A stretch of 64,000 nt of DNA from an uncultured Acidobacteriaceae bacterium (GCA_963757385.1 CAVWRO010000006.1:498173-562172), one strand, 5' to 3'. Counted from the first letter of the stretch, positions 19,485 through 33,599 are shown. Numbers and translations are program-made. The notes: a model not told the origin generated them from the letters alone.

Positions 19485-19561
<77 letters not shown>

Positions 19562-19634: not shown

Positions 19635-19811
19635 TCATTTTGCTAACTGCAATGCCGGACGAAGTACCATCTGCACGACCTTGCTATTGGCCTCGCGTTT
19701 GGTCTCCATCATGGAATTGCCGTAGACGTTCATGGTGGTCGCAACTTGAGCGTGCCTCATCAGTTTCTGCTGCGCGTCGATTGAAGTGCCCACCGAATCC
19801 AGCCACTGACT
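19635..19811 (-). pseudogene. C-terminal fragment of a tyrosine recombinase (phage-type integrase). The N-terminal approximately 85 percent is missing.
   Basis: The minus-strand frame reads SQWLDSVGTSIDAQQKLMRHAQVATTMNVYGNSMMETKREANSKVVQMVL-stop. LMRH...TTMNVYG corresponds to the LLGHxxxxTTxxYxH box carrying the catalytic Tyr. An in-frame TGA lies immediately upstream, and the RDD gene stop is 15 nt away. Confidence 0.65.
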
Positions 19812-19825
19812 TCAAGCCTCAATTT

Positions 19826-20626
19826 TCACCTCTGAATCGCGACGGACGTTGCGAATAGTATGCCAGACGCGTTAATCAAATATTGTTCATCGCTAAGCTT
19901 TTCCAGCAATTCGTCGGGAAACGGAGAGACTTCGCTCTGCAAATAAGTCGCCAGTTCGCGATAAATTTCTCGCCGCGCGTACGCCGCTAGTTCATTGCGG
20001 CGGCGTAGTGCATCCTGAACCAGGGTTGCGAGTTCCGGCGTGGCGGCTCGGCGAAGCTTCATCGCGGTTGCAGGATAGTCCATGAAGGAGTTGTACTTTT
20101 GCCGCATCCAGAATTCTTCCAGGGGGGCATCCAGTGGTGTCTGGCGTACCACGAGTGTTCCCGCCACGCGGTCGCCGAAGCGCTGCATCAAGGGAGTGAT
20201 CAGTACCGAGAGTCCTCCGGCCAGATACGCAAATGGCAGCGCATCAAAAACGCGCATCAGATTCCGCACCCACGCCTGTTCGATCCGTAGCGGAAAGCCA
20301 TTCTGATCAATCACCCGCAAATGGAAAAGGCGTTTTCCAATCGTCTGCCCGTTCCAGAAGGCCTCCAACAATGCACTATATGCGAAGCCGATCGCAAACT
20401 CCGCGAGTGTAATCACCATGAATCCAAAACCTGGGGCTTTGGAGAAAATCCAGTAGACTAGCAGCCCGACTCCGTTAACCGCGCCCAACACGATAACGCT
20501 ATCGAGCAGCATTGCGTAGAGCCGGGAAGCGGGTCCGGCCAACGGCAAGCGGAATAACACGCCTTCCGGCGTCGCAATGGTGAGTTCAGCCGCCATCGAG
20601 GCGCGGGTTAACTGAGTATCGGTCAT
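19826..20626 (-). CDS. RDD-family membrane protein (last gene of the operon).
   Basis: I place the start at MTDTQLTR, where ATGA overlaps the upstream stop. The listed 337 aa ORF has an Arg/Gly-rich extension that overlaps the upstream gene. RDD-type features are YAMLLDSVIV, GQTIGKRLFHLRVID and GDRVAGTLVV. Confidence 0.8.
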   Translation of the reverse strand: MTDTQLTRASMAAELTIATPEGVLFRLPLAGPASRLYAMLLDSVIVLGAVNGVGLLVYWIFSKAPGFGFMVITLAEFAIGFAYSALLEAFWNGQTIGKRLFHLRVIDQNGFPLRIEQAWVRNLMRVFDALPFAYLAGGLSVLITPLMQRFGDRVAGTLVVRQTPLDAPLEEFWMRQKYNSFMDYPATAMKLRRAATPELATLVQDALRRRNELAAYARREIYRELATYLQSEVSPFPDELLEKLSDEQYLINASGILFATSVAIQR

Positions 20627-21654
20627 CTTTGCTCCCAAGGGACGCTGATGGGCGTTTCCGTGCCGATTTCTCTCCGTCCGGCCATGAGTAGATAGGTCGT
20701 CAGCAGCACGAGTTCCGCCGCGGCGACCGCAACTTTGAACCCATATGGCAGAACGGGCGCGTGATGCTGAGAAAAAAATGCTTCCATAACTCCAGCCCAC
20801 ACCAGCATCATTGCCAGCCCGGCGACCAGGACCAGCCAATCCCGCATTGATTCTCGAACGTTGCGGTCCTCCCGCCGGCGCAAAAGCAGGCGGGCTAAGT
20901 AAAACCCCGCCTGTCCGGCGATTAAGATTGAGGGAATCTCAAAGACGCCGTGTGGCAGCAGCCAAGCTGTCATGAACAGCCCGAAGCCCTGCTGCGTGTA
21001 ATGAACGGCTACGGCCCCGAGCAATACGCCGTTTTCAAATAGGAGGAGGGCGGTTCCGATGCCAAATGTTACGCCGAGCGCAGCTGCGAGTAACGCTACC
21101 TCGATGTTGTGCCTGATCAGTTGTGCCGAGAATGCCGCTTCGGTCTGTGAGGAGGCCATGTGCCGCGACTGTCCTTGCTCTTCTTCATGCACGCGCTGGC
21201 CCGGATTGCGTAAATAATCGGCTGGAAGCAACACATCCACAGAGGCGGGATCGTAATGCACCGCCAGTCCGCCCAAGGCGCAGCCTAACAACGTGATTAG
21301 GACAGCCAGCGCGAAATAGCGCGCCTGCCGCCGGAACGTTTCGGGGAACACCGTGAAGATCCTCAGCCAGCCGCGCGGCTGCCAGATTTCAGAGCGCACT
21401 GGCGGGGCGTAATATAGTTCGGCATAGGCTCGCGCTACGAGCCGCTCGAGATACTGTCGTAGCTCGTGCGCCAATGAACCGTGGGTGACGCGATTCAAAT
21501 CCGCGGCCGTTCGGGCGTAAAGATCTTGCAGTTGTTCGGCCTCGGCTGGATTCAGCCGGCGGTCAGGCCGGCTTTCTAATCCAGCAAGCAGCGATTCGAG
21601 GTCGCGCCAGCGTGGCCGTGCTTGCGCCTGAAATCGTTCGAGATCAAGGATCAC
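20623..21654 (-). CDS. Stage II sporulation protein M-like (DUF95) integral membrane protein.
   Basis: An N-terminal soluble helical segment (RWRDLESLLAGLESRPDRRLNPAEAEQLQDLYARTAADL) is followed by about 5 TM helices. PHGVFEIPSILIAG matches the conserved SpoIIM/DUF95 motif. Confidence 0.75.
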   Translation of the reverse strand: MILDLERFQAQARPRWRDLESLLAGLESRPDRRLNPAEAEQLQDLYARTAADLNRVTHGSLAHELRQYLERLVARAYAELYYAPPVRSEIWQPRGWLRIFTVFPETFRRQARYFALAVLITLLGCALGGLAVHYDPASVDVLLPADYLRNPGQRVHEEEQGQSRHMASSQTEAAFSAQLIRHNIEVALLAAALGVTFGIGTALLLFENGVLLGAVAVHYTQQGFGLFMTAWLLPHGVFEIPSILIAGQAGFYLARLLLRRREDRNVRESMRDWLVLVAGLAMMLVWAGVMEAFFSQHHAPVLPYGFKVAVAAAELVLLTTYLLMAGRREIGTETPISVPWEQR

Positions 21655-23270
21655 AGACGTTGCTCCCGCTTGTTTTCCAAATATCCTTCTACGGCGGTTC
21701 GGAGGAACTTTTCCGCAGGAATATATCGGAGCTGCACATTTAGTTGCCGGAGTTGCCGCGCCAACGCGCCGAGCCGCTGGTTTTCTCGATCACCGGCAAG
21801 CGCCGCGTAAACATCCTGGTCGGTACTCAAAACCTCCTTTGCGGAGAATGCTGGCCGCACATGGGGCGGCAAGATACTCGTCATCAAAACCGCATGTAAG
21901 GAGCGGACCAGGCCAACCCCGCGACGTAACGAGTCCGAAATCGAGCGCTCGGTCAGATTCGCCAGCAATATAAGATACGCACGCCGCCGCAGCCGGACTC
22001 GAATGTCGCTGAACAATGCTTCGTAATCTGCATTGGTTGGCAGAGGCTCCAGATTCAGAAGAGAATCGCGAAATCGGTGGAACTGAGATTGGCCGCTTCC
22101 GGCGCGTAACCAAGACTTCGCTCCATCCGCGTAAGTGACCAATCCAAAATCATCGCCCAGTTCCAGCGCGACGGTCGCGCCCACCAATGCCGTTTCCACG
22201 GCGAGATCCAGCATCCGTCGCGGTGCGCGCGCTGGTAGAGGGTCGCTTTCGGAACCCGTCGGCGGATGCAGGGCAAGCGCGGATGCCCGTGATTGATCCA
22301 CGACAAAATACACTTCCTGCTTTTGCTCCCATTGGGAGAGCCGTGTGACCGGGGCGCCCCGACGTGCCGTGGATTTCCAGGCGATCTCGGAGTAGTTATC
22401 GCCGGGCTGATATTCCCGCAAGCGCTCGAACTCGCGCCCCTGGCCGGCCCACGGCGTCTGCTGAGAGGCAACAAGCATGCGGTAAACCGGGCTGCGCAAA
22501 AGCTCCTGACGCCCAAGCCGCAAATTCGCATCGATCCGCAAAGATTCCGGCAGGTCAAACCATCGTCGCAAACGCCAGATTCGGAAGCGCGACTGCCGCT
22601 CGATGCCAACCCGGGGTCCTTCATACAGGCCACGCCGAAGTAAAAAGATTTCGGCCGTCCACGGCCAGAGTTGAATAGGTCCGACACTGGCGGAGGTTGA
22701 TCCTCCTTCGAGCGACTCCGGCTGCTCGAGTTTCAGCCTCTGAGAGTCGCTTTTTACCCGGAATGCGATTTCGCTATCTTGTGTCGAATGCATTAGCGCT
22801 ACCCGGATGTTATTGCGCAACCAGCGCCGCCCCGAGCCGGCGAGCGCGAATGGAATCTGCATAGTCTGACCCTCACACCCTCGTAGGCCTTTTCCCGGCG
22901 GCAGCAGCACCGGGACACATTCTCCGCGAGCGAACCACAAACTGATCGCGTCATAACACGCCAGCAACACGACCGGGATGGCGATGAGCGCGAACCATAA
23001 CCATCCGCGAGCGAACCAAGGCACGATACACGCCCACACCGCGAGCACTCCTATGATCCACACAAGCGACTCCTGCGGAGTGAAGAGCGATCCCGCTGGC
23101 CGAAGCGCGATTTGCTGCGAAGTCTTGCCACCCAAAAGCGGGTTGCTAGATGCTGGTTCGGCAGTAACAGTGACCCCGGCATTGACAACCACGTCCTGCA
23201 CGCCGCCACCCGCGAAGCTTTCCCTTAGCGCCGTCATAATTTGCCTTGCTTCGATATTGCCGCCCGACAT
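21651..23270 (-). CDS. DUF58 (VWA-like) protein with an N-terminal membrane anchor.
   Basis: YQPGDNYSEIAWKSTARRGAPVTRLSQWEQKQEVYFVVDQS is the DUF58 signature (YxxGDxxxxIdWKatAR). There are two N-terminal TM helices. It sits directly downstream of moxR, as in MoxR-DUF58 pairs. Confidence 0.8.
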   Translation of the reverse strand: MSGGNIEARQIMTALRESFAGGGVQDVVVNAGVTVTAEPASSNPLLGGKTSQQIALRPAGSLFTPQESLVWIIGVLAVWACIVPWFARGWLWFALIAIPVVLLACYDAISLWFARGECVPVLLPPGKGLRGCEGQTMQIPFALAGSGRRWLRNNIRVALMHSTQDSEIAFRVKSDSQRLKLEQPESLEGGSTSASVGPIQLWPWTAEIFLLRRGLYEGPRVGIERQSRFRIWRLRRWFDLPESLRIDANLRLGRQELLRSPVYRMLVASQQTPWAGQGREFERLREYQPGDNYSEIAWKSTARRGAPVTRLSQWEQKQEVYFVVDQSRASALALHPPTGSESDPLPARAPRRMLDLAVETALVGATVALELGDDFGLVTYADGAKSWLRAGSGQSQFHRFRDSLLNLEPLPTNADYEALFSDIRVRLRRRAYLILLANLTERSISDSLRRGVGLVRSLHAVLMTSILPPHVRPAFSAKEVLSTDQDVYAALAGDRENQRLGALARQLRQLNVQLRYIPAEKFLRTAVEGYLENKREQRL

Positions 23271-23286
23271 GCTCTACCAATACGGT

Positions 23287-24315
23287 CTACCGAGGTACCT
23301 CCACCGCTTCCAGCACCGCGTTGATTACCTCGCGAATCTCGACGCCTTCCATCTCGAAATCCGGCCGCAGCAGCATGCGATGCTCCAGTACAGGGGCCGC
23401 CAGCGTCTTTACGTCCTCGGGCGCCACAAAATCGCGCTCCTCGAGAGCTGCGAGCGCGCGCGACGCCGACAATAATGCGAGCGTTGCTCGCGGCCCCGCG
23501 CCAACCCAGACTGCCGGGTGCTGCCGGGTCTGTCGAGCCAGGCTGACGATGTAGCCGCTGATAGCGTCACTGACGCGCACCTGTGCGGTAACGGCTCGCA
23601 GTTGTTCGAGTTCACCGGGTTGCAAAATCGGCACGCGCAGATCCTCGGCCAACCGACGCTCCGGTGAGTCGCCTCGTGCGACCAGCCTGGCGAGTTCGTT
23701 TTCGTCTTCCGCAGCCGGGTAGTCCATGCGGATCTTGACGAGAAAGCGATCCTTCTGAGCCTCCGGAAGCGGATACGTGCCTTGATGCTCGATTGGATTT
23801 TGCGTTGCAAAGACGACGAAGACCGGGGACAGCGCGCAGGTCTCGCGGTCAATCGTCACCTGGCGCTCCTGCATGGCCTCCAGCAGCGCCGATTGCGTCT
23901 TTGCTGGTGCGCGGTTGATTTCGTCCGCCAGTAGGAAATTTGTGAAAATGGGCCCTCGCACGAGCCGGAATTCCTGTGTCCTCAAGTCGAAAACGCTTGT
24001 CCCCGTAACGTCTGCCGGCATCAGGTCGGGCGTGAATTGAATGCGCTGAAAGTCACCTGCGACCGCGCGCGCCAGCGCTTTCACCAGCAATGTTTTCCCC
24101 ACGCCTGGCACACCTTCAATGAGCGCGTGTCCACCGGCAAGTAGCGTCACCAGCGCGAGATCGATCGCTTCGCTTTGGCCGACGATCACGCGGCTCAAGG
24201 CTTCACGAACACGCCGCGCTCCACTGGTAATCATCGCCAAGTACTCTGACGATGGTATTGCCGCTCTCCCAGACTCTGCCTGCGAGTCCGAACCGGGTAC
24301 TAGCTTCTCGTTCAT
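23287..24315 (-). CDS. moxR: MoxR-family AAA+ ATPase.
   Basis: I place the start at MNEKLV (ATG 24315), with GGAGG 9 nt upstream. Walker A is GVPGVGKT and Walker B is FLLADEINRAPAKTQSALLEAMQE. ATQNP and the C-terminal lid are typical of AAA_3. Confidence 0.92.
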   Translation of the reverse strand: MNEKLVPGSDSQAESGRAAIPSSEYLAMITSGARRVREALSRVIVGQSEAIDLALVTLLAGGHALIEGVPGVGKTLLVKALARAVAGDFQRIQFTPDLMPADVTGTSVFDLRTQEFRLVRGPIFTNFLLADEINRAPAKTQSALLEAMQERQVTIDRETCALSPVFVVFATQNPIEHQGTYPLPEAQKDRFLVKIRMDYPAAEDENELARLVARGDSPERRLAEDLRVPILQPGELEQLRAVTAQVRVSDAISGYIVSLARQTRQHPAVWVGAGPRATLALLSASRALAALEERDFVAPEDVKTLAAPVLEHRMLLRPDFEMEGVEIREVINAVLEAVEVPR

Positions 24316-24347
24316 GCGATTTGTGCCTCCAAAGAAATCATTGTTGG

Positions 24348-25580
24348 CTAAAGGCGCAACTTGTCGGACACATCGCGGTCGAGATGAGCCAGTCCCTTCG
24401 CGGATGAGCGTCGTTCGGCTATCAACTGACTTAGTTCCCTGTATCCTTCTACAGGTCGCTGCGCGAGCGCGGTGCGAAGCCGCGCACCCCAGAGTGGGTC
24501 TGTAGAAATGGCCTGCGCATCCTGCGGCCAGCAGTGACGGAACTGTTCCCAGCACTCTGGCACAACGCGTTCTTTCGAGATGCTCCGTTGAAGTAGGAGT
24601 CGCGCGGCCACCCCGGCGACTTCGCCACGACGTACGATCCCCGCACTGGGGTTGTGCGCCGGGAGTCGCACTAGATCGCCACTCATACTCCAAAGCAACA
24701 TCAGCAGAGTCGCCCAGAACAGCAATAGAGCAGTTTGCAGCCGGTATCGCTCCACTAGCCAAAGCACACCTTGATCCTGATGCAACCCGTGCAGCGTTTC
24801 ATCGACCCAGATTACCGGTCGTCCGTCCGCAAGAAAATCTAACAGCACCGGGTTGGGATGCGTCTTGATCGCCTCGTTCAGTAAGAAAGATTCCTGACTC
24901 GCGGCAATGAGTTCGCCATCCCCGGCACGCCGCATTGCCATATAGACACGTGGCGATGTGTCAGCGTTGGCACCGTCTCCCACTCCTCTGCTGTACAGAG
25001 CGGTCCACTGTGGATCTGTCTCCAGCCACGGGGCGGCGGAGGCAAGGAACATCGGTTCGCTCTCTGGGGACATCGCACGGGGATCGGGCGAGATCCAAGG
25101 TGGAGTATCCTGGTGGGCTTTTTTCTCCGGCTCCCATTTATTCGCTACTTCCCAGCCTTGAGACTCGGATTTTAGATCCAAACTAGGCGCGACCAGCACA
25201 ACGCGTCCGCCGCGCGCTAGAAAATCTTCCAGCCGCTTACGAAACTTTGTTCCGGTCTGAATTTTTCCATTGTTGGTTGTCCAATCGTTAGGAGAGTAAC
25301 CCCCGATAAAGAACGCGGTGGTTCTCGACGCGTCCTGATCAGAAAGCGAGTTCTCATCCTGGCCGCGCTTTACTTGCTGCCCTGCGCGCCCATAGGAATC
25401 GAACAACAGGCTGGTGCCGTAAGGGTCCTCGCGTAAACTGGATCCCATGTCGCTCGTTTTCGACTCATTCTGGTGTGCCATCATCAGGAGAATTGCGAAC
25501 ACCGCCGCAAAAATGCCAGCTGCGAGCAGCGGACCTCGCCAGTTGAGCACGATGCTCTTGGCCGGCTTATTGTCAGACAT
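24348..25580 (-). CDS. Membrane-anchored DUF4350-like protein.
   Basis: One N-terminal TM helix and one near residue 290. The assignment rests on its position between DUF4129-like and MoxR genes, which I recall as a conserved neighbourhood. No HMM was run. Confidence 0.55.
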   Translation of the reverse strand: MSDNKPAKSIVLNWRGPLLAAGIFAAVFAILLMMAHQNESKTSDMGSSLREDPYGTSLLFDSYGRAGQQVKRGQDENSLSDQDASRTTAFFIGGYSPNDWTTNNGKIQTGTKFRKRLEDFLARGGRVVLVAPSLDLKSESQGWEVANKWEPEKKAHQDTPPWISPDPRAMSPESEPMFLASAAPWLETDPQWTALYSRGVGDGANADTSPRVYMAMRRAGDGELIAASQESFLLNEAIKTHPNPVLLDFLADGRPVIWVDETLHGLHQDQGVLWLVERYRLQTALLLFWATLLMLLWSMSGDLVRLPAHNPSAGIVRRGEVAGVAARLLLQRSISKERVVPECWEQFRHCWPQDAQAISTDPLWGARLRTALAQRPVEGYRELSQLIAERRSSAKGLAHLDRDVSDKLRL

Positions 25581-27330
25581 GGTTGAGTAACTCCCGTTGA
25601 TCTTGGCGGTACGCAGCCACTGCCTCTGCCGTCAGGATATCGGACCCGTACCAAACGCGATCAAACTGCCGCAGGCTGCGACGCAGTTTCTCTGGAATTT
25701 CTGCCCGCGACTCAATGGCAGCCTGGGGACGCCTCCGCCATCGCCCCGTAAACTGATCGAGATATTCGCGATTCGTGCGATCGCGGCGAAGCATCAGCCA
25801 TTCGCGACGGGCCAATCCTGCAAGCAAAGCGAAATACGCGGCGCGCAGGGCGAGCCGCAGTTCTCCCGCCTCTTCCATCCGTGCTGCCAAGGCAAACCAT
25901 TCGTCCTCGGAACGCACGTTTGCCATGGCACCTTCGCTCAGATCGGGCAGCGGCGCAATTGTCTGCGGGATGGAAAGCGACGCTGTCTCTCTTTTTCGCC
26001 GCAACCAAAGGAGTATCCCTCCAACTGTAAGAGTTAAAATCGCGATTAGCGACAGCCATATTCGAAGGTGTTTCAACTGCCAGGAGCGGCCGTTCCCATC
26101 TCCGAGATTCAACCCGCGGGGCCACAGTTTGCGGAGAAAATCCCAAAACGCATTCCAAACACGCTCTATCCCGCGCTCGATCTTTGTCAGCAGCTTGTCA
26201 AACCAGTTGGGCGGACTCAGCTGTTCGGCGTCGTGCCAGCGGTAAATGGCGCGCCGCGACTCGATGTCCAAAGCTTGGCGCAATTGTTGAATCCGCACCT
26301 GACGCGCCGAATCGGTGAAAGTCCCTACTGCGTTTGGTGCTGGCGGCATCTGCTCTGCGCGCGCGGCCTGGGAAACGCTAGTGAGAATAATTGCAGCCAG
26401 GACTACCAACGCTCCGGTCAGCCTGCTAGGAGCACTGGTCGATGCAATCATCTGAGCCTTCTTCTGTTGCTCGCGTGGCAGGCTCGCCAGCAGCCCGCGC
26501 AAGTCGTCGCCTTCGCGCCTCGATCGCAAATGCTGATAAACAATGACGAAGGAACACTTGACGATGGGATCAAGGGCCAACCATGCGCCCGCGAACAACG
26601 AAAGCCAGAATGCGGAACTTTGGATCAGAGCGTACATTCCCATTTGTGTAGACAGGAGAGTGTTCAGCCCAAAAATGGAGTGTAGAAGCTGCGGAAGAAT
26701 CATCGCTAGGATCAGGCCATTCAGCCACACGGCGATCCAGAAAGGAAAGAGCATCAAGAATAGGAGCACGCTGCCGCCAAACCATTGGCTCGCGATTGCT
26801 AAGCAACCGCCTATGGAGCGTCTTTCAGCGCCTTCCTCTCGCGCTTCAAGACTTGCAAACTGGCATGCACAATAAAACCACGACGCACCCGCAAAGGTTG
26901 GCAGCGCGGCTAACACACCAGCACTCAGGGTGATCTTCCATGCGAGCAGACGCCCCACAGCCGCAGCACGTGCGGTTGTTCCTGCCGGTTCCGATGAGGG
27001 CGTGCCAAACGCTCGCTCGCGGACGCGTTGCATGTAACTGGAGACCATGCTCAGGCGCAGCAGATAGCATGCCGCGAGTAATGCGGCCTCCAGCAGCACA
27101 ATGCCGTTGGATAGCCGTATCTGGCCATTTACTACCCACAGCGGAATAAAACAAAGGACGAGAGGCGCGCTACCTGCGTAATAACGCCACGCCTCTTGCA
27201 CAAACGTTGACCGGAACAGTGCGAATCCGCGTTCCAGCGCTTCGAGCGAGTTCAACCGGTTCCGGTGACGGCGCACGGGTAGCATGCGTGCGCGCAGCGA
27301 AGGGGCGGGAGCCAGTGCGGCTTCACTCAT
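25573..27330 (-). CDS. Polytopic membrane protein with a C-terminal DUF4129-like domain.
   Basis: About 6 N-terminal TM helices, one TM near residue 440, then a cytoplasmic tail (REWLMLRRDRTNREYLDQF...WYGSDILTAEAV) that resembles DUF4129. Confidence 0.6.
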   Translation of the reverse strand: MSEAALAPAPSLRARMLPVRRHRNRLNSLEALERGFALFRSTFVQEAWRYYAGSAPLVLCFIPLWVVNGQIRLSNGIVLLEAALLAACYLLRLSMVSSYMQRVRERAFGTPSSEPAGTTARAAAVGRLLAWKITLSAGVLAALPTFAGASWFYCACQFASLEAREEGAERRSIGGCLAIASQWFGGSVLLFLMLFPFWIAVWLNGLILAMILPQLLHSIFGLNTLLSTQMGMYALIQSSAFWLSLFAGAWLALDPIVKCSFVIVYQHLRSRREGDDLRGLLASLPREQQKKAQMIASTSAPSRLTGALVVLAAIILTSVSQAARAEQMPPAPNAVGTFTDSARQVRIQQLRQALDIESRRAIYRWHDAEQLSPPNWFDKLLTKIERGIERVWNAFWDFLRKLWPRGLNLGDGNGRSWQLKHLRIWLSLIAILTLTVGGILLWLRRKRETASLSIPQTIAPLPDLSEGAMANVRSEDEWFALAARMEEAGELRLALRAAYFALLAGLARREWLMLRRDRTNREYLDQFTGRWRRRPQAAIESRAEIPEKLRRSLRQFDRVWYGSDILTAEAVAAYRQDQRELLNHV

Positions 27331-27694
27331 TGTTTGGCTCGGGGTTTTGCTCGGGCAGCCGGGCAGTGACCCGGCCGAGATTCAAATGGTCCTCTGGCGT
27401 CTCTACTCGCCAGCGCAGCAACGTGAAGAAAAGTGCCATGAGCGAGACGAGGGCGGTAAGTCCAGCAAGAACCTGCCGTAAGCGGTGCCCCATGGACAGC
27501 TTTGGTGCGGGCGGACTCGCCATCCGGCGCAAACACGGCGGGCAGGCGAGCTTGCCCTCTTCGTCCGTTACGCATTCACGACAGAATGTTCCTCCGCAAT
27601 GTGGACACCGCGCTGCCGCTTCCCGTAGCGGATGAAACAGGCAGCGAGCATCGCGCAAACTTCTCGTGGGAGAGACTGGCCGGTCAGAAGCCAT
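27323..27694 (-). CDS. B-box-type zinc-finger protein with a C-terminal TM helix.
   Basis: CLFHPLREAAARCPHCGGTFCRECVTDEEGKLACPPCL (C-x2-H-x7-C-x2-C-x4-C-x2-C ... C-x2-C), then the TM helix VLAGLTALVSLMALFFTLL. Confidence 0.55.
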   Translation of the reverse strand: MASDRPVSPTRSLRDARCLFHPLREAAARCPHCGGTFCRECVTDEEGKLACPPCLRRMASPPAPKLSMGHRLRQVLAGLTALVSLMALFFTLLRWRVETPEDHLNLGRVTARLPEQNPEPNNE

Positions 27695-28214
27695 TTATTT
27701 GTGAGGCATCCGCCATAGAAGAGACCGCAGACATTGCTTCGGATTTCGTTGCGACGGAAGCCTCAGCCGGTTGCAGGACCACGTCGCGCGAGGCGCGAAC
27801 CGCCGCGTCAATTGCTTCAAGAACCTTGCCGGCGCGACGTGTCCGCTTCACCAACGGCAGGTCAACGATCACACCGGTGGCGCGCACCCGCGAATCGGCC
27901 GTCGGCCCGAGTGCCAGCTCCAGCGCCACCCATGCGAGAGCGATGCCAGTGAAGATCGCGCCGGCGGTAGAGTTCGCCCATCTCCACAGGGAAGCGCCCA
28001 GAACTGCGAGCAAAACCGCGGGGATAACCAGGCGGTACCGCCACAAACGGCTGGGCCAGACCACAATGTATTCCAAGTCGCGCAAATAAAATCGTCGGTA
28101 CTCGACCGCGTACATCATGCGCTTCGCGGCAAGCAAACAGTCCGGACTGAGATACCACTTCGTCCCACCGGTGATGCTACTAACCCGCGATATTTTGTGG
28201 AAAGCACTTTTCAA
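27684..28214 (-). CDS. Hypothetical membrane protein (two TM helices).
   Basis: The open frame is tightly packed with its neighbours (11 nt overlap downstream, directly abutting upstream). TM helices LVIPAVLLAVLGASLW and AIFTGIALAWVALELAL. No known motif. Confidence 0.5.
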   Translation of the reverse strand: MKSAFHKISRVSSITGGTKWYLSPDCLLAAKRMMYAVEYRRFYLRDLEYIVVWPSRLWRYRLVIPAVLLAVLGASLWRWANSTAGAIFTGIALAWVALELALGPTADSRVRATGVIVDLPLVKRTRRAGKVLEAIDAAVRASRDVVLQPAEASVATKSEAMSAVSSMADASQINGF

Positions 28215-28868
28215 TCAATGCCTCCCCGCCGCCCAACGTGTGATGAACGGGATGGCGATCAATAACGGGAGCCAAATGAACCCCGCATAGGCCATCCAAA
28301 AACGCCACCCAGACCGCGGAATCAAATAGGAACGCGGAGCCTTCCTATATTTCACGTGCAAAAAAATCACGCCCGGGAGGGCGACTACAATCACCGGCCA
28401 CACGAGAATCCAACCCCATCCGACGGTCAACGCAATGGAATCATAGAGTACATCGCGATACCGCCATTCCGCCTTACCAGCCTTCACACCCGAATCGGCA
28501 CGCCCGCGCTCGAAGCATGTAGGGCAAACGTGTTCCGCTCCCAACTGCAAGTCACAGAGCGCGCACACGAATCGTCCGCACCGTTGGCAGCAAGCCTGAA
28601 ACGCCTTGTCTGGATGGAAGAAGCAGGTCGCCTGTTCTGAAAGCGCCGGCACCGCACTGCTATTCTGGCGAACAATCGGCCATACGTGGAGCTGTAGCCG
28701 TTTCTGGCAGTGGGGACAACTTTGCCATTGCGAATCAGCCGGTATGTCCACAAAACAGTGAGGACAGGATACGGACCTAAGTCCAATAGGGAATGACATC
28801 GGGTCATCGTTTGCCGAAGAGCCCGTCGAGCCTACCCCGGCAGCGAATGGATTGATACTAAGGTTCAC
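28215..28868 (-). CDS. Zinc-ribbon plus B-box zinc-finger membrane protein.
   Basis: CPHCFVDIPADSQWQSCPHCQ (zinc ribbon), then CFFHPDKAFQACCQRCGRFVCALCDLQLGAEHVCPTCF (B-box-like), then three TM helices. Confidence 0.6.
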   Translation of the reverse strand: MNLSINPFAAGVGSTGSSANDDPMSFPIGLRSVSCPHCFVDIPADSQWQSCPHCQKRLQLHVWPIVRQNSSAVPALSEQATCFFHPDKAFQACCQRCGRFVCALCDLQLGAEHVCPTCFERGRADSGVKAGKAEWRYRDVLYDSIALTVGWGWILVWPVIVVALPGVIFLHVKYRKAPRSYLIPRSGWRFWMAYAGFIWLPLLIAIPFITRWAAGRH

Positions 28869-29470
28869 CCCAAGCTCCGTTTGTAGATCACCCGCGTGTC
28901 ACAAACCCGATCGTGCAATGCCCGCTTCTCGTCATCAAACCCAACCATGATGTACCCGATAGCCAGAATGATGCCGCTGATGAGATACATGAAATAACGG
29001 CCGACAGAGACGCCCCATCCAAGCGACTCTCCATCGCTTCGAACCACCTTGAGCCCTAATGCCATTTTCCCCAGCGTCGCTCCCTGATAACGCAGCAACA
29101 CCGCCTCGTAAGCAATAGCAATCACAAAGGAAAGGACATAAAAATTCAGGCGAACGCCCATATGAGCGGATCGCATCACGCTGGGCATGAATTGCGCTCC
29201 GAACATGCCAAAAAACAGCCAGGCAATGAGAGCTTTGGCGACGCCAAGAGTAATTCCATCAATCAACCGTGCGACGACGCGAATCCAAAATCCAGCGTAA
29301 TGCCATTTAGAAGTTACGGCAGCGCCGCCCGCCATCACTCGGCTTAGATATGCGGACTTGCAATCCGCGCATACCCAGTTCCCTGCGATATGCACCAGGT
29401 CAGACTGACCAAGTGCCCGGCCGCATTGGGAACATGCTAAGACCGTCTGGACTGAAGCTTCCTGGCTCAT
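28865..29470 (-). CDS. RDD-family membrane protein with an N-terminal zinc ribbon (paralog 1).
   Basis: CSQCGRALGQSDLVHIAGNWVCADCK. RDD-type features are FWIRVVARLIDG, GATLGKMALGLKVV and DDEKRALHDRVCDTRVI. Confidence 0.8.
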   Translation of the reverse strand: MSQEASVQTVLACSQCGRALGQSDLVHIAGNWVCADCKSAYLSRVMAGGAAVTSKWHYAGFWIRVVARLIDGITLGVAKALIAWLFFGMFGAQFMPSVMRSAHMGVRLNFYVLSFVIAIAYEAVLLRYQGATLGKMALGLKVVRSDGESLGWGVSVGRYFMYLISGIILAIGYIMVGFDDEKRALHDRVCDTRVIYKRSLG

Positions 29471-29511
29471 TGGATATTCCCTGTTGCACTGAAAGGATTG
29501 ATACTAAGGCC

Positions 29512-30162
29512 TCACGCTACGCTCGGTTTGTATATGACTCTCGTGTCACAAACCCGATCGTGCAGCGCCCGCTTCTCGTCGTCCACGCCCACCATAATTG
29601 AAGTAACTAGCATCAGGATGGAATTTAAATAGGGAATGCCGCTGGTGACAACATTCCACATGAAGAAGCGCCCAAAGCATACTCCCCAACTCAAGCTGCG
29701 CCCATCCGGCCGAGTGACCTGCAGCCCGCAGGCCATCTTTCCAAGAGTTGCACTACGATACTTCAGCATCAGAATCTCGTAGCAGCCTGCCGCTAGGAAA
29801 AAAAATACAAAGAAAAGAAGGCCGAAGGCTGCAAATGCCGGGCTGGCTGCGCTAGGCGGGTTGCCCGCTTGACGCGTCGCGCGTATCACATTCGGTAGCA
29901 TCACAGCGACGAAGATCGCAAAAGGTACCGTGAAAATAAGGCCATCAATCATTCGCGCGCCGAAACGGATCCAGAATCCGCCGTAACGCCAGCCGAGTGG
30001 CGATGCCCCAGCGGCTCCGCTCGCCATAACCCGGCTCAGAAAGGCCGGCTTGCAATCAGCACACACCCAGCTCCCGGCGATATGCACCAAGTCAGACTGA
30101 GCGATTGCCCGACCGCATTGGGAACAAGCCAGAATCGTTTGAGCCGGATCTTCTTGACTCAC
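29512..30162 (-). CDS. RDD-family membrane protein with an N-terminal zinc ribbon (paralog 2, first gene of the operon).
   Basis: I place the start at GTG 30162, with GAGGAGG 8 nt upstream. This gives VSQEDPAQTILACSQCG..., colinear with paralog 1. The listed ATG at 30264 adds 34 unrelated residues and lies inside the left end of the IS. Confidence 0.75.
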   Translation of the reverse strand: MSQEDPAQTILACSQCGRAIAQSDLVHIAGSWVCADCKPAFLSRVMASGAAGASPLGWRYGGFWIRFGARMIDGLIFTVPFAIFVAVMLPNVIRATRQAGNPPSAASPAFAAFGLLFFVFFFLAAGCYEILMLKYRSATLGKMACGLQVTRPDGRSLSWGVCFGRFFMWNVVTSGIPYLNSILMLVTSIMVGVDDEKRALHDRVCDTRVIYKPSVA

Positions 30163-30239
30163 TGGGCTATCCTCCTCGTGCAAAAGTCGCACAAAGCGTA
30201 CCGCAAGCGGCTTCCAGCGGCAAGTACTACTATTTAGCC

Positions 30240-31628
30240 TGTAGATGCTCCAAGATAATGTCACCCCCTAACTGCAACGAGACTTTGTCACCCTATGAGG
30301 ATGGTGACGATGAGTCAGAAAGAGTTGCAACGCGTGAAAGTGATTGAGAATGCGGTGGGCGGGAGGCTGAGCGTACGCGAAGCTGCCCGCCTGCTGCAAC
30401 TGAGTGAACGGCAGGTACAGCGGCTCAAGCGGCGCTATGAGCCCGATTCCATCGCGTGGGTGCACCACGGCAATCGTGGACGCCCTATGCCTTGGGCTTT
30501 TTCACTTCCCCAGAAGCGGTTGATTTTGACCTTGGCTCGCGGCAAGTATGCCGGCTTCAACGATTCTCATCTCGCGGAAAAACTTCGTGTCGAGGAGAAC
30601 CTCACCGTCAGCCGCGAGACCGTGCGCCGCATTTTACGAGGTGCAAAACTTGCCTCTCCGCAGAAACGCCGCGCCCGTAAATATCGCTCGCGCCGCGCAC
30701 CCCGCCCGCGTTTCGGCATGATGGTGCTCACCGACGCCAGCCGTCACGACTGGCTCGAAGGCCGCGGTCCGCATCTCACTCTTGTCGGTTTTCAAGACGA
30801 TGCCACCAGCCAGATTCTCTCCGCCCACTTCCAACTCGAAGCCGAAAATACCGTTGGATATCTTCGCGCCCTGTACGCCATGATCTCCGTCCACGGCGTG
30901 CCCCTCAGCCTCTATCGTGATCGTCACTGCATCTTTCAGCGCAACGATTCCCACTGGACCGTCGCCGAAGAACTCGCCGGAAAACAATCTTCCACCCAGC
31001 TTGGGCGCGCCCTCGAGGAGCTCGGCATCACCCAGATCCCCGCCTACTCGCCCGAAGCCAAAGGCCGCATTGAGCGCGCCTGGCGCACCTTGCAGGACCG
31101 CCTGGTCAGCGAACTTCGCCTCGCCCATGCCATTACTTTGCAAGAGGCCAACGCCGTGCTGGCCCGTTTCTGCGACGACTACAATCGACGCTTCGCACGT
31201 CCGGCCGCCGAATCCGCTCGCGACTTTCGCGCTCTGCCGCGCCGCTTCGATCTCGCCCGCTGCCTTAGCCTGCGCTATGACCGCGTCGTCGGCCCCGATC
31301 ACGTCGTCGTCTTGGGCGCGCATTCCATCGCCCTACCATCCTTGCCCGCCCAGCGCGGATACTCGGGCGAAACCGTCGAACTCTCGCATCAGTTGGACGG
31401 CACCCTGCGTACCTACCGCGGAGATCACTTACTGATGACCCACCCCTTGCCGCTGCAAGAATACGGCCATCGCAACCCTGCTCCGCGACTCACGCTGCGG
31501 AAACCCAAAACCCAGATGCCCCGCATCTACAACCTGGGAGGCCGCCCCGCTTTGGCGGCAGTTACTTAATCGTTAAGGGGTGACATAATCTCGTCGCAGT
31601 TAATACGACATTTTCTCGTTGCAACAAC
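30240..31628 (+). mobile_element. Complete insertion sequence (1389 bp), rve-type DDE transposase, IS1202/ISNCY-like, flanked by a 17 bp direct repeat.
   Basis: The direct repeat agtactactatttagcc occurs at 30223-30239 and 31629-31645. The imperfect terminal inverted repeats include taactgcaacgagactttgtcaccc (30269-30293) against the reverse complement of 31578-31602 (22 of 25 match). The outermost 22 nt match at about 15 of 22. Confidence 0.8.
30310..31569 (+). CDS. IS transposase (N-terminal HTH plus integrase-core DDE domain).
   Basis: MSQKELQRVKVIENAVGGRLSVREAARLLQLSERQVQRLKRRY (HTH), LTDASRHDWLEG (first catalytic D region), YRDRHCIF (second D region) and SPEAKGRIERAWRTLQDRLVSELRL (catalytic E region). 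In-frame ATGs at 30295 and 30301 are alternative starts. Confidence 0.85.
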   Translation: MSQKELQRVKVIENAVGGRLSVREAARLLQLSERQVQRLKRRYEPDSIAWVHHGNRGRPMPWAFSLPQKRLILTLARGKYAGFNDSHLAEKLRVEENLTVSRETVRRILRGAKLASPQKRRARKYRSRRAPRPRFGMMVLTDASRHDWLEGRGPHLTLVGFQDDATSQILSAHFQLEAENTVGYLRALYAMISVHGVPLSLYRDRHCIFQRNDSHWTVAEELAGKQSSTQLGRALEELGITQIPAYSPEAKGRIERAWRTLQDRLVSELRLAHAITLQEANAVLARFCDDYNRRFARPAAESARDFRALPRRFDLARCLSLRYDRVVGPDHVVVLGAHSIALPSLPAQRGYSGETVELSHQLDGTLRTYRGDHLLMTHPLPLQEYGHRNPAPRLTLRKPKTQMPRIYNLGGRPALAAVT

Positions 31629-31811
31629 AGTACTACTATTTAGCCGAAAGGATTAACCCTCCGGGGTGACGTCAGAACTGCTCAAACGAGGTTCCAATGA
31701 CTGCTTCACCGGAGCCTGGCGACTTCGCGGTAACGACGAGACACTTCTTCGGGGAAGTCCTCCGGTATGACAAGGTCCTGGAGGGGCGTTCAGACGCAAT
31801 CCAATGAGCTC

Positions 31812-33599
31812 TTAGCGGCGCCTGTGACCGCGGGCTCCGCGGCCAATGTTAAAGGCAGTGTTAACCAGGCCGACGTGAGTGAATGCTTGCGGGAAATTGC
31901 CTAGCAGCCGTTTGGCGTCGGGATCGTATTCCTCTGAGAGCAGTCCCACGTCGTTGCGAATATCGAGCAGGCGTTCGAATATTTTGACTGCCTCTTCCTG
32001 GCGTCCCTGGAGGATATAATTGTCGGCCAGCCAGTATGTACAGGCCAAAAACTTGGCCTCTCCGTGAGGCAAACCGTCCACGTCCGGGTCCATGGTGTAG
32101 CGAGCAACAAAGCCATTGTCCATAAGATGGTCTTCAATGGCTTTAACCGTGCCGAGAACGCGCGGATCGGTTGCGGGAAGAAATCCCACCAACGGCATCA
32201 TGAGAAGGCTGGCATCGAGGTGTTTCGATCCGTAATACTGCACGAAAGAATTCAGGCCGGAGTCAAATCCCTGATCGCAAACCTGTTTGTGAATCTTGTC
32301 TCGAAGCGTTGTCCATTTTCCGATATCTCCGGAGAACCAGCCGTTCTCCACTGAGCGTATCGCGCGATCTACGGCCACCCACGCCATCATTTTGGAGTGG
32401 ACAAAATGCCGGCGCGGGCCGCGCACCTCCCAAATGCCATCGTCGGGCCGCTCCCATCCCTTCTCCAGAAATTCAATGAGCGCCTGTGCAACGTCCTCGC
32501 CTTCATCCTCGGGCGGCGGTTCCAAACCAGCCTCGCGGAATTGATAAAGAGTGTTGGCAACTTCTCCGAAAATATCCAATTGAAATTGCGTGGAGGCTGC
32601 GTTGCCGACGCGAACCGGAACCGAGTTCTCGTATCCCGTCAGCCAGGGCAGTTCAAGTTCCGTAAGCCTGCGCTCGCCGCGAAGGCCATAGACAATGTTG
32701 AGTTCCGACGGACTGCCAGCGACCGCTCGCAAAAGCCACTCGCGCCACTCCTGGGCTTCTTCGTGATATCCGGCATCGAGCAGGGAATGCAGAGTGAGCG
32801 TCGCGTCACGTACCCAGCAAAAACGGTAGTCCCAGTTGCGCACACCGCCCAAGGCTTCGGGCAACGACGTGGTTGGCGCGGCAGCTATTCCTCCGGTAGG
32901 GAGAAATGTCAGCGCTTTTAACGTAATCAGAGAGCGCAGCACGGCCTCGCGCCATTCGCCTTTGTACGAGCAGCGATCGGACCACTCCCGCCACCAGTCT
33001 TCCGTCTCTTGGATCGCATCTTCCACATTCAGGGTTGAAGGCTCATCGCGATGCGAGGGATACCATGTGAGATCGAACGGAACTTTTTGTCCCTTGCTTA
33101 CCGTGAACGTCGCAACAGTCTTGAGGTTTTCGCCTCGCAGCGGAATATCCGTGCGCAGGCCAAGCATATCCGGTCCGGCGATTGCGGAAATCCCCCGACC
33201 GGTTTTTCGTACCCACGGAACTATTGACCCGTAATCGAATCGAATTACCAGATCCAAGTTCATGACCACTTGTCCGCGGGTGCCGACCACCATGCGCAGT
33301 AAATCGGGCGACTCATTGCGAGGCGACATGCAATCAATGAGCGTCACCGAACCGTTTTCGGTCTCGAATTCGGTCTCGAGGATGAGCGTGCATTCCCGAT
33401 AACGGCGGCGAATTCCTTTAATCGGCTCGGCAGGGGAGATAGACCAGTGTCCGTTGTCGGCAGTTCCAAGCAGCGCGGCAAAACATGCACCGGAATCGAA
33501 GTGCGGCAAACATAGCCAGTCAATCGAACCCTGCTTCGAAACCAGGGCTGCCGTGTGACAGTCCCCGATCATGGCGTAGTCTTCTATGGGGATGGACAA
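31812..33599 (-). CDS. Glycoside hydrolase family 15 protein (glucoamylase/trehalase-like).
   Basis: IEDYAMIGDCHTAALVSKQGSIDWLCLPHFDSGACFAALLG is the typical GH15 N terminus, and WDYRFCWVRDA is the catalytic region. Length is 595 aa. Confidence 0.9.
   Translation of the reverse strand: MSIPIEDYAMIGDCHTAALVSKQGSIDWLCLPHFDSGACFAALLGTADNGHWSISPAEPIKGIRRRYRECTLILETEFETENGSVTLIDCMSPRNESPDLLRMVVGTRGQVVMNLDLVIRFDYGSIVPWVRKTGRGISAIAGPDMLGLRTDIPLRGENLKTVATFTVSKGQKVPFDLTWYPSHRDEPSTLNVEDAIQETEDWWREWSDRCSYKGEWREAVLRSLITLKALTFLPTGGIAAAPTTSLPEALGGVRNWDYRFCWVRDATLTLHSLLDAGYHEEAQEWREWLLRAVAGSPSELNIVYGLRGERRLTELELPWLTGYENSVPVRVGNAASTQFQLDIFGEVANTLYQFREAGLEPPPEDEGEDVAQALIEFLEKGWERPDDGIWEVRGPRRHFVHSKMMAWVAVDRAIRSVENGWFSGDIGKWTTLRDKIHKQVCDQGFDSGLNSFVQYYGSKHLDASLLMMPLVGFLPATDPRVLGTVKAIEDHLMDNGFVARYTMDPDVDGLPHGEAKFLACTYWLADNYILQGRQEEAVKIFERLLDIRNDVGLLSEEYDPDAKRLLGNFPQAFTHVGLVNTAFNIGRGARGHRRR

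Follow-up and report, generated by a model that had tools for sequence, protein, structure and literature searches.

MoxR-DUF58 modules are among the most widespread prokaryotic gene neighborhoods without known function. The MoxR-proper (MRP) operons, of which the Bacteroides Bat aerotolerance operon is an example, pair the AAA+ ATPase MoxR with DUF58 and with VWA/TPR partners. Here we describe an operon of eleven genes (g1 to g11, numbered in the direction of transcription; Table 1) that contains such a module, found in DNA of an uncultured Acidobacteriaceae bacterium (GCA_963757385.1, CAVWRO010000006.1:498173-562172); this 64,000-nucleotide stretch is called the window below. As in the Bat-type operons, a MoxR gene of the AAA_3 family is directly followed by DUF58 and the products are membrane- or envelope-associated; the partner set, which there comprises BatA/BatB VWA and TPR proteins, is entirely different here, and no VWA or TPR Pfam match was found among the operon products.

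The mycobacterial cluster Rv3689-Rv3695 (the MoxR2 region; MAB_0386c-0392c in M. chelonae/abscessus) has the same core of RDD, SpoIIM-like, DUF58, MoxR and DUF4350 genes together with membrane proteins, and likewise has no assigned function. Its M. chelonae orthologs change expression together (PMC8191103), and Rv3694c and Rv3695 co-purify with the divisome protein Rv0954 (PMC8093794). It differs from the window operon in that the SpoIIM-like gene (Rv3694c) lies on the opposite strand and the region is annotated as an ordinary chromosomal locus; zinc-ribbon and B-box genes are not reported for it in the published descriptions.

For archaea, a secretion or membrane-remodeling complex of DUF4350, MoxR and vWA proteins was predicted by Makarova, Galperin and Koonin (2015), who also noted SpoIIM homologs beside vWA and COG0714 genes in bacteria (PMC5898192). 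The archaeal arCOG01314 system shares with ours a DUF4350 protein with a large outside domain, a COG0714/MoxR ATPase and a vWA-type partner, but it has S-layer/Ig-like components (arCOG02884 and others) and lacks RDD, DUF4129 and zinc-finger genes; Pfam and NCBIfam scans of our eleven products gave no Ig-like, S-layer or DUF1616-type match. A first-pass annotation of the window had described the core as a conserved neighborhood without assigned function, and both the mycobacterial (PMC8191103) and the archaeal (PMC5898192) accounts agree with it.

In the MoxR-vWA pairs RavA-ViaA, NorQ-NorD and CbbQ-CbbO, a hexamer of MoxR works with a vWA adaptor to remodel one particular target complex (PMC3893208, PMC13036017). 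These pairs are our working analogy for the mechanism. Their clients are known soluble or respiratory enzymes, whereas the presumed clients here are nine co-encoded membrane proteins, and the adaptor here is DUF58 rather than the canonical vWA, bearing a metal ion-dependent adhesion site (MIDAS), of the characterized pairs.

A ten- or eleven-gene unit in the Acidobacteriota

The operon is the Acidobacteriota (Terriglobia) form of a widespread, uncharacterized RDD/SpoIIM-like/DUF58/MoxR/DUF4350/DUF4129 module. What is new in it is the extended module architecture and a pattern of relocation, both well supported; function and mechanism we infer. We examined 64 loci from a scan of species-representative genomes, nearly all labeled uncultured Acidobacteriota. 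The order g1(/g2)-g3-g4-g5-g6-g7-g8-g9-g10-g11 and the gene orientation are kept in every locus that is long enough (tblastn). Both here and in more distant clades the module is always a 10- or 11-gene unit, which adds to the core one or two zinc-ribbon RDD proteins, two membrane-tethered B-box/RING-like proteins (g3 and g5) and the hairpin protein g4. The families are alike in size, with 689 homologs for g3, none of them annotated, 739 for g6 and 746 for g7; the top 120 g7 homologs are at least 70% identical, and every named one is from Terriglobales. Neither MoxR nor the 100% DUF4350 match gave anything in exact-protein look-ups, and a tblastn search of plasmid sequences gave no DUF4350 match.

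Two distant loci found through 50%-cluster representatives, L071 (g7 about 34% identical) and L070 (about 27%), share the layout. Profile hidden Markov models (HMMs) built from the Terriglobia orthologs find counterparts of g3, g4, g5 and g6 in them with E-values from 1e-9 to 1e-72, those for g4 being 1e-9 and 1e-21. In L070 the head protein (L070:5297-6253) has retained its N-terminal zinc ribbons, but the polytopic membrane domain joined to them is another one, not of the RDD type; the zinc ribbon seems to be the constant element of this protein. Because these distant clades keep the layout, g3 to g5 and a zinc-ribbon head are ancestral components of the unit. The first-pass annotation had taken the three zinc-finger or membrane genes to be extras of this version; their presence in the same order in all loci of sufficient length, clades with 27–34% identity included, contradicts that.

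Most loci have ten genes with a single head RDD gene. In a tree of the head RDD proteins there are two old paralog clades, 50–69% identical within a locus; two-head loci have one RDD of each type, and single-head loci retain either type. From these clades it follows that the pair in the window, previously read as a local duplication, is an ancient pair with differential loss elsewhere. The comparison of neighborhoods across the Acidobacteriota that had been proposed for this operon gives a 10- or 11-gene unit that co-occurs while its flanks are unrelated.

L050 and L053 (contigs DATMKS010000011 and DATMKS010000084) are two divergent operon copies assigned to one metagenome-assembled genome (MAG) labeled Verrucomicrobiia, and each has a 93–94% identical counterpart in another MAG, of Acidobacteriota. 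Contamination of the bin could explain this, as could the presence of two operon lineages in one genome.

Relocation or transfer of the operon as a discrete block

The operon lies at a different chromosomal place in almost every species. Homology of the window to other operon loci (blastn against L008, L009, L014, L001, L064 and L006) is limited in five or six comparisons to a single block, with a truncated integrase at one edge and the first base of an insertion sequence (IS) at the other, and the conserved remainder is exactly the transcription unit. The genes that flank the window operon are near the operon in none of the related loci, and the commonest flank family occurs at 5 of about 45 loci, on mixed sides. 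Twelve operon pairs are 91–94.5% identical in nucleotide sequence over about 9.7 kb without any flanking gene family in common; blastn on six such pairs gave a single homology block, whose start lies about 80–170 nt (in some comparisons as much as about 250 nt) ahead of the first gene and whose end lies about 6–115 nt past the last stop. L055 and L067 do have flank genes and a tRNA-Gly in common, and there the position and orientation of the operon differ.

We took a census of the flanks at the other operon loci: 150 open reading frames (ORFs) with 170 Pfam families, none of which occurs in more than four ORFs. The content is ordinary metabolic and transport genes; no integrase or transposase is among the 25 commonest families, and one operon locus adjoins restriction-modification genes and transposases. 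Ten tRNA genes lie within 1 kb of operon ends against 0.82 expected (46 loci, P = 2e-8, about 12-fold; L008, L014, L020, L021, L045, L047, L048, L055, L063 and L067), while the outer flanks have 4 against 3.6 expected. All but one are at the head, most of them running in the direction of the operon; the ten are of eight types, three being tRNA-Gly, and none has an integrase alongside. The unit moves, by relocation or by transfer, as one discrete block, without a recombinase of its own and often beside tRNA genes.

Two readings were rejected. The operon is not a defined mobile element with fixed ends, because its breakpoints are nested and lineage-specific, without terminal repeats, target duplications, att repeats or fixed termini; no second copy of the 17-mer at its head (Table 1) or of the IS-end motif was found at the operon tail. 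Nor does its guanine-plus-cytosine (GC) content mark foreign DNA: in 46 of 48 relatives the operon is richer in GC than its flanks (mean +3.2 points; +4 points in the window), so the higher GC is intrinsic to the operon.

Across the initiator tRNA gene, identified as such by a C1:A72 mismatch and a GGG/CCC anticodon stem, lies a chromosomal backbone whose EamA-dn2-dn3-dn4 order is kept in 57 of 80 EamA-anchored metagenomic relatives (63–86% amino acid identity). This order serves as a control for the relocation: ordinary backbone synteny is well preserved at such divergence, although operon copies of 91–94.5% identity have unrelated flanks. Backbone synteny ends at the tRNA, and neither the operon nor the GH15 gene of the window is beside EamA in any of the 80 loci; since no such relative has the operon across the tRNA, the operon is not native to its present site, and the region next to the initiator tRNA that holds the unit is variable. 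L075, the closest backbone relative (EamA 86% identical), has a Phage_integrase protein of 439 amino acids (1e-18) after the same tRNA, and L075:749-9559 holds this integrase, ArdC-N, a ParB-like gene and a TraG/VirB4-like ATPase, an apparently intact integrative and conjugative element (ICE) at the initiator tRNA. The 58-residue integrase relic of the window gives no Pfam match by itself and is 63% identical to residues 389-437 of the L075 integrase (E = 3e-23); with a full integrase and conjugative-element genes at that tRNA in L075, the tRNA-integrase relic of the first-pass annotation is real. The initiator tRNA is an integration site of a conjugative element in the present lineage, and the relic is cut exactly where the conserved operon block stops (19811).

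The gene of glycoside hydrolase family 15 (GH15; window 31812-33599), upstream of the IS, has elevated GC as well (about 0.59). It adjoins neither EamA nor the operon in any relative, so the variable region reaches past the operon.

These observations refine the idea of an acquired island into a more definite one, in which the operon was cargo of an ICE that inserted at the initiator tRNA and has since decayed. The integrase 3′ remnant directly abuts the operon end, which favors this, yet no further fragment of an ICE gene was found within the 64-kb window. The L075 element, with an intact integrase and ArdC, ParB and TraG/VirB4-like genes at the same tRNA, is a parallel, and the visible 9 kb of it is without the operon. 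The end of backbone synteny at the tRNA, with the operon there in 0 of 80 EamA-anchored relatives, the family-wide enrichment of tRNA adjacency and an integrase fragment that also lies beside the operon head in L027 would suit such cargo; the flank census, without integrase or transposase in its 25 commonest families, would not. Nor was an att repeat found: a search of the window that tolerated up to 3 mismatches gave no further copy of the tRNA 3′ end, and exact repeats of the tRNA 3′ region reach no more than 12 nt (at 48.9 kb), a length at chance level. With the GC difference intrinsic to the operon and the IS a later simple insertion, we consider ICE cargo in the window a doubtful explanation that still deserves some weight. 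Most of the observations on the family would fit a scenario in which integrative elements decay and the operon, being under selection, is all that remains of them.

The earlier claim of acquired DNA stands in part. The site is non-native and the unit relocates, for reasons other than those given at the time; the operon itself is typical of its Acidobacteriota lineage rather than foreign DNA.

The IS on the other side had been taken as the second border of an island. It belongs to the ISNCY family, its inverted repeats (I1, I2, I7) are subterminal, and it is bounded by a perfect 17-nt direct repeat (D4). It sits in an intergenic stretch shortly before the promoter region as a recent, simple insertion that duplicated 17 bp of its target, and it does not mark an island border; it is no assembly artifact either, since an independent assembly (L073, found by g3 look-up) has the same IS spacing and layout. 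In 13 loci the operon block opens with the 17-mer that was duplicated here, which is conserved. The insertion took place 17 nt upstream of the probable −35 box, and thanks to the target duplication the promoter region is still whole.

The left edge of the 17-mer recurs as a junction in three settings. One is the window IS. The second is a truncated copy of the same ISNCY end (L014:5859-5976, corresponding to window 30240-30358) that includes the first ~30 transposase codons and abuts the operon block of L014 at the identical base in a different species; this suggests either a preference of the IS for the 17-mer as target, the window and L014 insertions then being independent events at one base, or an old insertion. 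The third is a conserved non-coding element of about 230 bp, absent from the window, which lies upstream of the 17-mer in six relatives (L009:5740-5969, L019, L006, L064, L015 and L027), ends at the same base and contains a strong 10-bp hairpin. The element has no Rfam match, Rfam searches of the operon and of the relatives' upstream element having found tRNA alone. A dispersed miniature inverted-repeat transposable element was rejected as its identity, as it occurs solely directly upstream of the operon, and a structured RNA is unsupported (3 compensatory pairs, with an unfavorable covariation term).

Gene products of the operon

All eleven ORFs lie on the minus strand at the coordinates of the first-pass annotation, and the close packing that it described is borne out: the junctions are overlaps of 4, 11, 8, 8, 4 and 4 nt and gaps of 41, 0, 32 and 16 nt. 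Start codons agree with those of orthologs; the GTG of g1 at 30162, preceded by a GGAGGA ribosome-binding site, is aligned with the ATG of relatives. Table 1 gives the coordinates of the operon and of the features around it.

Table 1. Coordinates of the operon genes and adjoining features in the window.
Feature	Position	Strand	Description
Initiator tRNA-Met (CAT)	19485..19561	+	ARAGORN; Rfam tRNA 65 bits
Tyrosine integrase 3′ remnant	19635..19811	-	~170 nt, last ~50 codons; reads ...WLDSVGTSIDAQQKLMRHAQVATTMNVYG...
Block common to relatives	19811..30239	-	Leader/promoter region and eleven genes
g11	19826..20626	-	RDD membrane protein, 3 transmembrane (TM) segments, conserved ~120-residue predicted cytoplasmic C-terminal tail; Pfam RDD 5e-19
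g10	20623..21654	-	SpoIIM-like polytopic membrane protein, ~113-residue predicted cytoplasmic N-terminal domain; Pfam SpoIIM 4e-37
g9	21651..23270	-	DUF58 (vWA-like); TM hairpin anchor at residues 69-111; large C-terminal body predicted cytoplasmic
g8	23287..24315	-	MoxR-type AAA+ ATPase, sole soluble product; AAA_3 4e-63, AAA_lid_2 1.5e-22
g7	24348..25580	-	DUF4350; Pfam 3e-11
g6	25573..27330	-	All-helical polytopic membrane protein; Lys/Arg-rich predicted cytoplasmic DUF4129-like C-terminal domain
g5	27323..27694	-	Membrane-tethered B-box/RING-like binuclear zinc finger, one TM segment
g4	27684..28214	-	Conserved protein without family; TM hairpin flanked by two predicted cytoplasmic segments
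g3	28215..28868	-	Predicted cytoplasmic zinc ribbon and B-box-like finger, then C-terminal TM hairpin; Cys/His ligands invariant
g2	28865..29470	-	Zinc ribbon and RDD, paralog type 2; Pfam RDD 1e-26
g1	29512..30162	-	Zinc ribbon and RDD, paralog type 1; Pfam RDD 1e-24
Conserved leader	30163..30239	-	77 nt; holds candidate promoter and conserved 17-mer
Candidate promoter	-35 30223-30218; -10 30200-30195	-	-35 TTGCCG, 17-nt spacer, -10 TACGCT
Conserved 17-mer	30223-30239		GGCTARATAGTAGTACT; UP-element position; fixed position in 13 loci
IS target-site duplication, 17 bp	30223-30239 and 31629-31645		
ISNCY-family insertion sequence	30240..31628	+	Transposase 30295-31569; NF033594 344.7 bits (cutoff 250)

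The six families RDD, SpoIIM, DUF58, MoxR, DUF4350 and DUF4129 are contiguous in the operon, DUF4129 being borderline in the window protein. Pfam supports most of the domain assignments made earlier (RDD three times, SpoIIM, DUF58, AAA_3 and DUF4350) and leaves two kinds short of threshold. One is DUF4129 in g6 (6e-5, 23.4 bits, 1.4 bits below the gathering score of 24.8), for which about half of the g6 orthologs that are 72–83% identical have a precomputed PF13559 match; the other is the zinc fingers. MoxR (g8) scores 211.5 bits for AAA_3 (gathering 27) and 79.6 bits for AAA_lid_2 (gathering 22.7), and its Walker A (GVPGVGKT) and Walker B (LLADEINR) motifs are invariant or nearly so across 61 orthologs, which speaks for an active ATPase. 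The DUF58 gene g9 starts 16 nt past the moxR stop; its product matches Pfam DUF58 at 3e-15 and 56.3 bits (gathering 23.4), and its orthologs conserve the motifs REYQPGD...WK.TAR and VVDQSRAS. Orthologs of g10 also have a precomputed match to PF28475 (DUF8413), 35% of alignment columns are invariant among 54 orthologs of g11, and the CxxC...CxxCK motif of g1 is invariant in the ortholog alignment. An NCBIfam scan of the operon proteins except g2 and g8 gave a single, far-sub-cutoff match, to SpoIIM, and profile searches of g3 and g6 against sequences of the Protein Data Bank gave no significant match.

The three genes g3, g4 and g5 are under clear purifying selection. In g5 the motif C-x2-H-x8-C-x2-C-x4-C-x2-C-x9-C-x2-C is nearly invariant among orthologs, and the eight-ligand cross-brace C-x2-H-x7/8-C-x2-C-x4-C-x2-C-...-C-x2-C is almost invariant in orthologs of both g3 and g5, the distant ones included; an hhalign comparison shows homology between the two fingers (95.9%, E = 6e-9). 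The zinc-finger Pfam matches of the window g3 and g5 proteins are all under gathering scores, as are those of orthologs: zf-B_box (PF00643) matches 14 of 26 g3 orthologs, at best with 1e-4, and g5 orthologs match ANCHR-like_BBOX (26 of 27) and Prok-RING_4 (21 of 27), their best zf-B_box E-value being 8e-5. Because the matches to B-box and RING models, though sub-threshold, are consistent across orthologs, we call g3 and g5 putative B-box/RING-like binuclear fingers, a name that claims no Pfam membership. Prokaryotic binuclear treble-clef fingers of this kind are reportedly small, cytoplasmic, cross-brace fingers tethered to the membrane, like those of g3 and g5, and Burroughs, Iyer and Aravind in 2011 are said to have proposed them as peptide binders and partners of membrane-associated proteins. 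The contexts they treated reportedly involve membrane peptidases, whereas no peptidase domain was detected in the present operon.

The hairpin protein g4, conserved in 49 orthologs, has no family match in Pfam, NCBIfam or any other library scanned. Its N-terminal segment (WYLS.DCLLAAK...RRFYLRDL) and the segment after the hairpin look like two parts of a small beta-rich domain that the hairpin interrupts.

Candidate functions

By analogy with the characterized MoxR-vWA pairs, we propose that the operon encodes, as a single transcription unit, a MoxR/DUF58-driven complex for inner-membrane assembly or remodeling, a reading in which we have about even confidence. A cytoplasmic MoxR hexamer would dock on the vWA-like body of the membrane-anchored DUF58 protein and, at the cost of ATP, would assemble, remodel or gate a complex formed by the co-encoded inner-membrane proteins. 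It might act through their cytoplasmic domains, namely the DUF4129 tail, the DUF4350 tail, the SpoIIM N-terminal domain and the RDD C-terminal tail, with the zinc fingers, all predicted to be cytoplasmic, as peptide- or protein-binding adaptors or regulators. The DUF4350 domain of about 245 amino acids, the sole large extracytoplasmic part, may link the complex to the envelope. The idea of an AAA+-driven envelope machine, put forward in the first-pass annotation, is plausible by the same analogy.

The predicted topology bears on this proposal and on a rival to it. The operon products are one AAA+ ATPase and ten membrane proteins: TM segments are predicted in ten of the eleven by a 19-residue hydropathy scan, MoxR being the exception, which agrees with the earlier statement that every product except MoxR is membrane-anchored. 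The DUF58 body, the DUF4129, DUF4350 and RDD tails, the SpoIIM N-terminus and all zinc fingers are predicted to be cytoplasmic and so within reach of MoxR, while g7 is predicted to have a signal anchor, its extracytoplasmic domain, a TM segment and a cytoplasmic tail of about 110 amino acids. So many membrane proteins around a DUF4350 gene would also suit a dedicated system for secretion or surface-polymer export like that suggested for the archaeal DUF4350, MoxR and vWA neighborhood, for whose arCOG01314 operons the 2015 prediction of secretion drew on GldG-like similarity (PMC5898192). We regard export as very unlikely: the soluble domains are mostly predicted to be cytoplasmic with one sizeable periplasmic domain, no outer-membrane component, secretin, signal-peptide cargo, glycosyltransferase or ABC ATPase was found in or next to the operon, and the S-layer/Ig-like partners of the archaeal system are absent.

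The ATPase itself raises another candidate. MoxR-vWA pairs drive several predicted conflict systems (PMC7159879), g8 has a secondary match to bpMoxR (1e-12, 47.6 bits), and the accessory, mobile behavior of the operon (flanks without synteny, adjacency to tRNA genes, and at one locus restriction-modification genes and transposases as neighbors) would be expected of a membrane-associated anti-phage or conflict system of MoxR-vWA type with the zinc-finger proteins as sensors. AAA_3 (4e-63, 211.5 bits) is, however, a far better fit to g8 than bpMoxR, PADLOC gave generic P-loop noise only and no system match, and no recognizable nuclease, protease, toxin, pore-forming or beta-propeller domain was found in the operon. 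The metabolic and transport genes of the flank census are not those of defense, and mycobacteria carry the same core as a stable cluster on the chromosome (PMC8191103). A conflict system is quite unlikely.

The proposed inner-membrane assembly complex also has several points that weigh against it. Its mechanism rests on domain analogy with other MoxR-vWA pairs, and we found no experiment on any module member in the literature. The MIDAS-like motif of g9, VVDQSRAS (DxSxxS), is imperfect against the canonical DxSxS. Topology was taken from a simple hydropathy scan with Lys/Arg counts rather than from a dedicated predictor. The AlphaFold2 models of g6 (all-alpha) and g3, from shallow alignments, are of low confidence and unusable, with predicted local distance difference test (pLDDT) values of 50.7 and 48.5. 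As to the single transcription unit, the candidate promoter matches 7 of 12 consensus positions and is not called by a consensus scan, whose promoter and terminator counts are at chance level; its pattern TTGnnG-17-TAnnCT recurs in relatives of two other operon sub-lineages. The nested breakpoints described above count against a unit that moves with defined ends.

Function and movement could be joined in a stronger statement, that the operon is a self-contained, horizontally mobile membrane machine of a new class of MoxR/vWA-powered systems, in which membrane-tethered B-box/RING-like zinc fingers sense or recruit cytoplasmic ligands, and which spreads among soil Acidobacteria by a relocation mechanism that needs no recombinase of its own, carries exactly one transcription unit and prefers tRNA-adjacent sites. 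We think this unlikely as a whole.

The rigid 10- or 11-gene form adds to the MoxR-DUF58 core three conserved partners, the two B-box-like fingers and the hairpin protein, and a zinc-ribbon head. This partner set and the predicted topology narrow the action of the ATPase to the cytoplasmic face of an inner-membrane complex, and they provide concrete targets for pull-downs and structure modeling. The operon is also a clean example of an operon as the unit of transfer or rearrangement, and its relocation suggests an accessory, niche-dependent role in abundant uncultured soil Acidobacteria.

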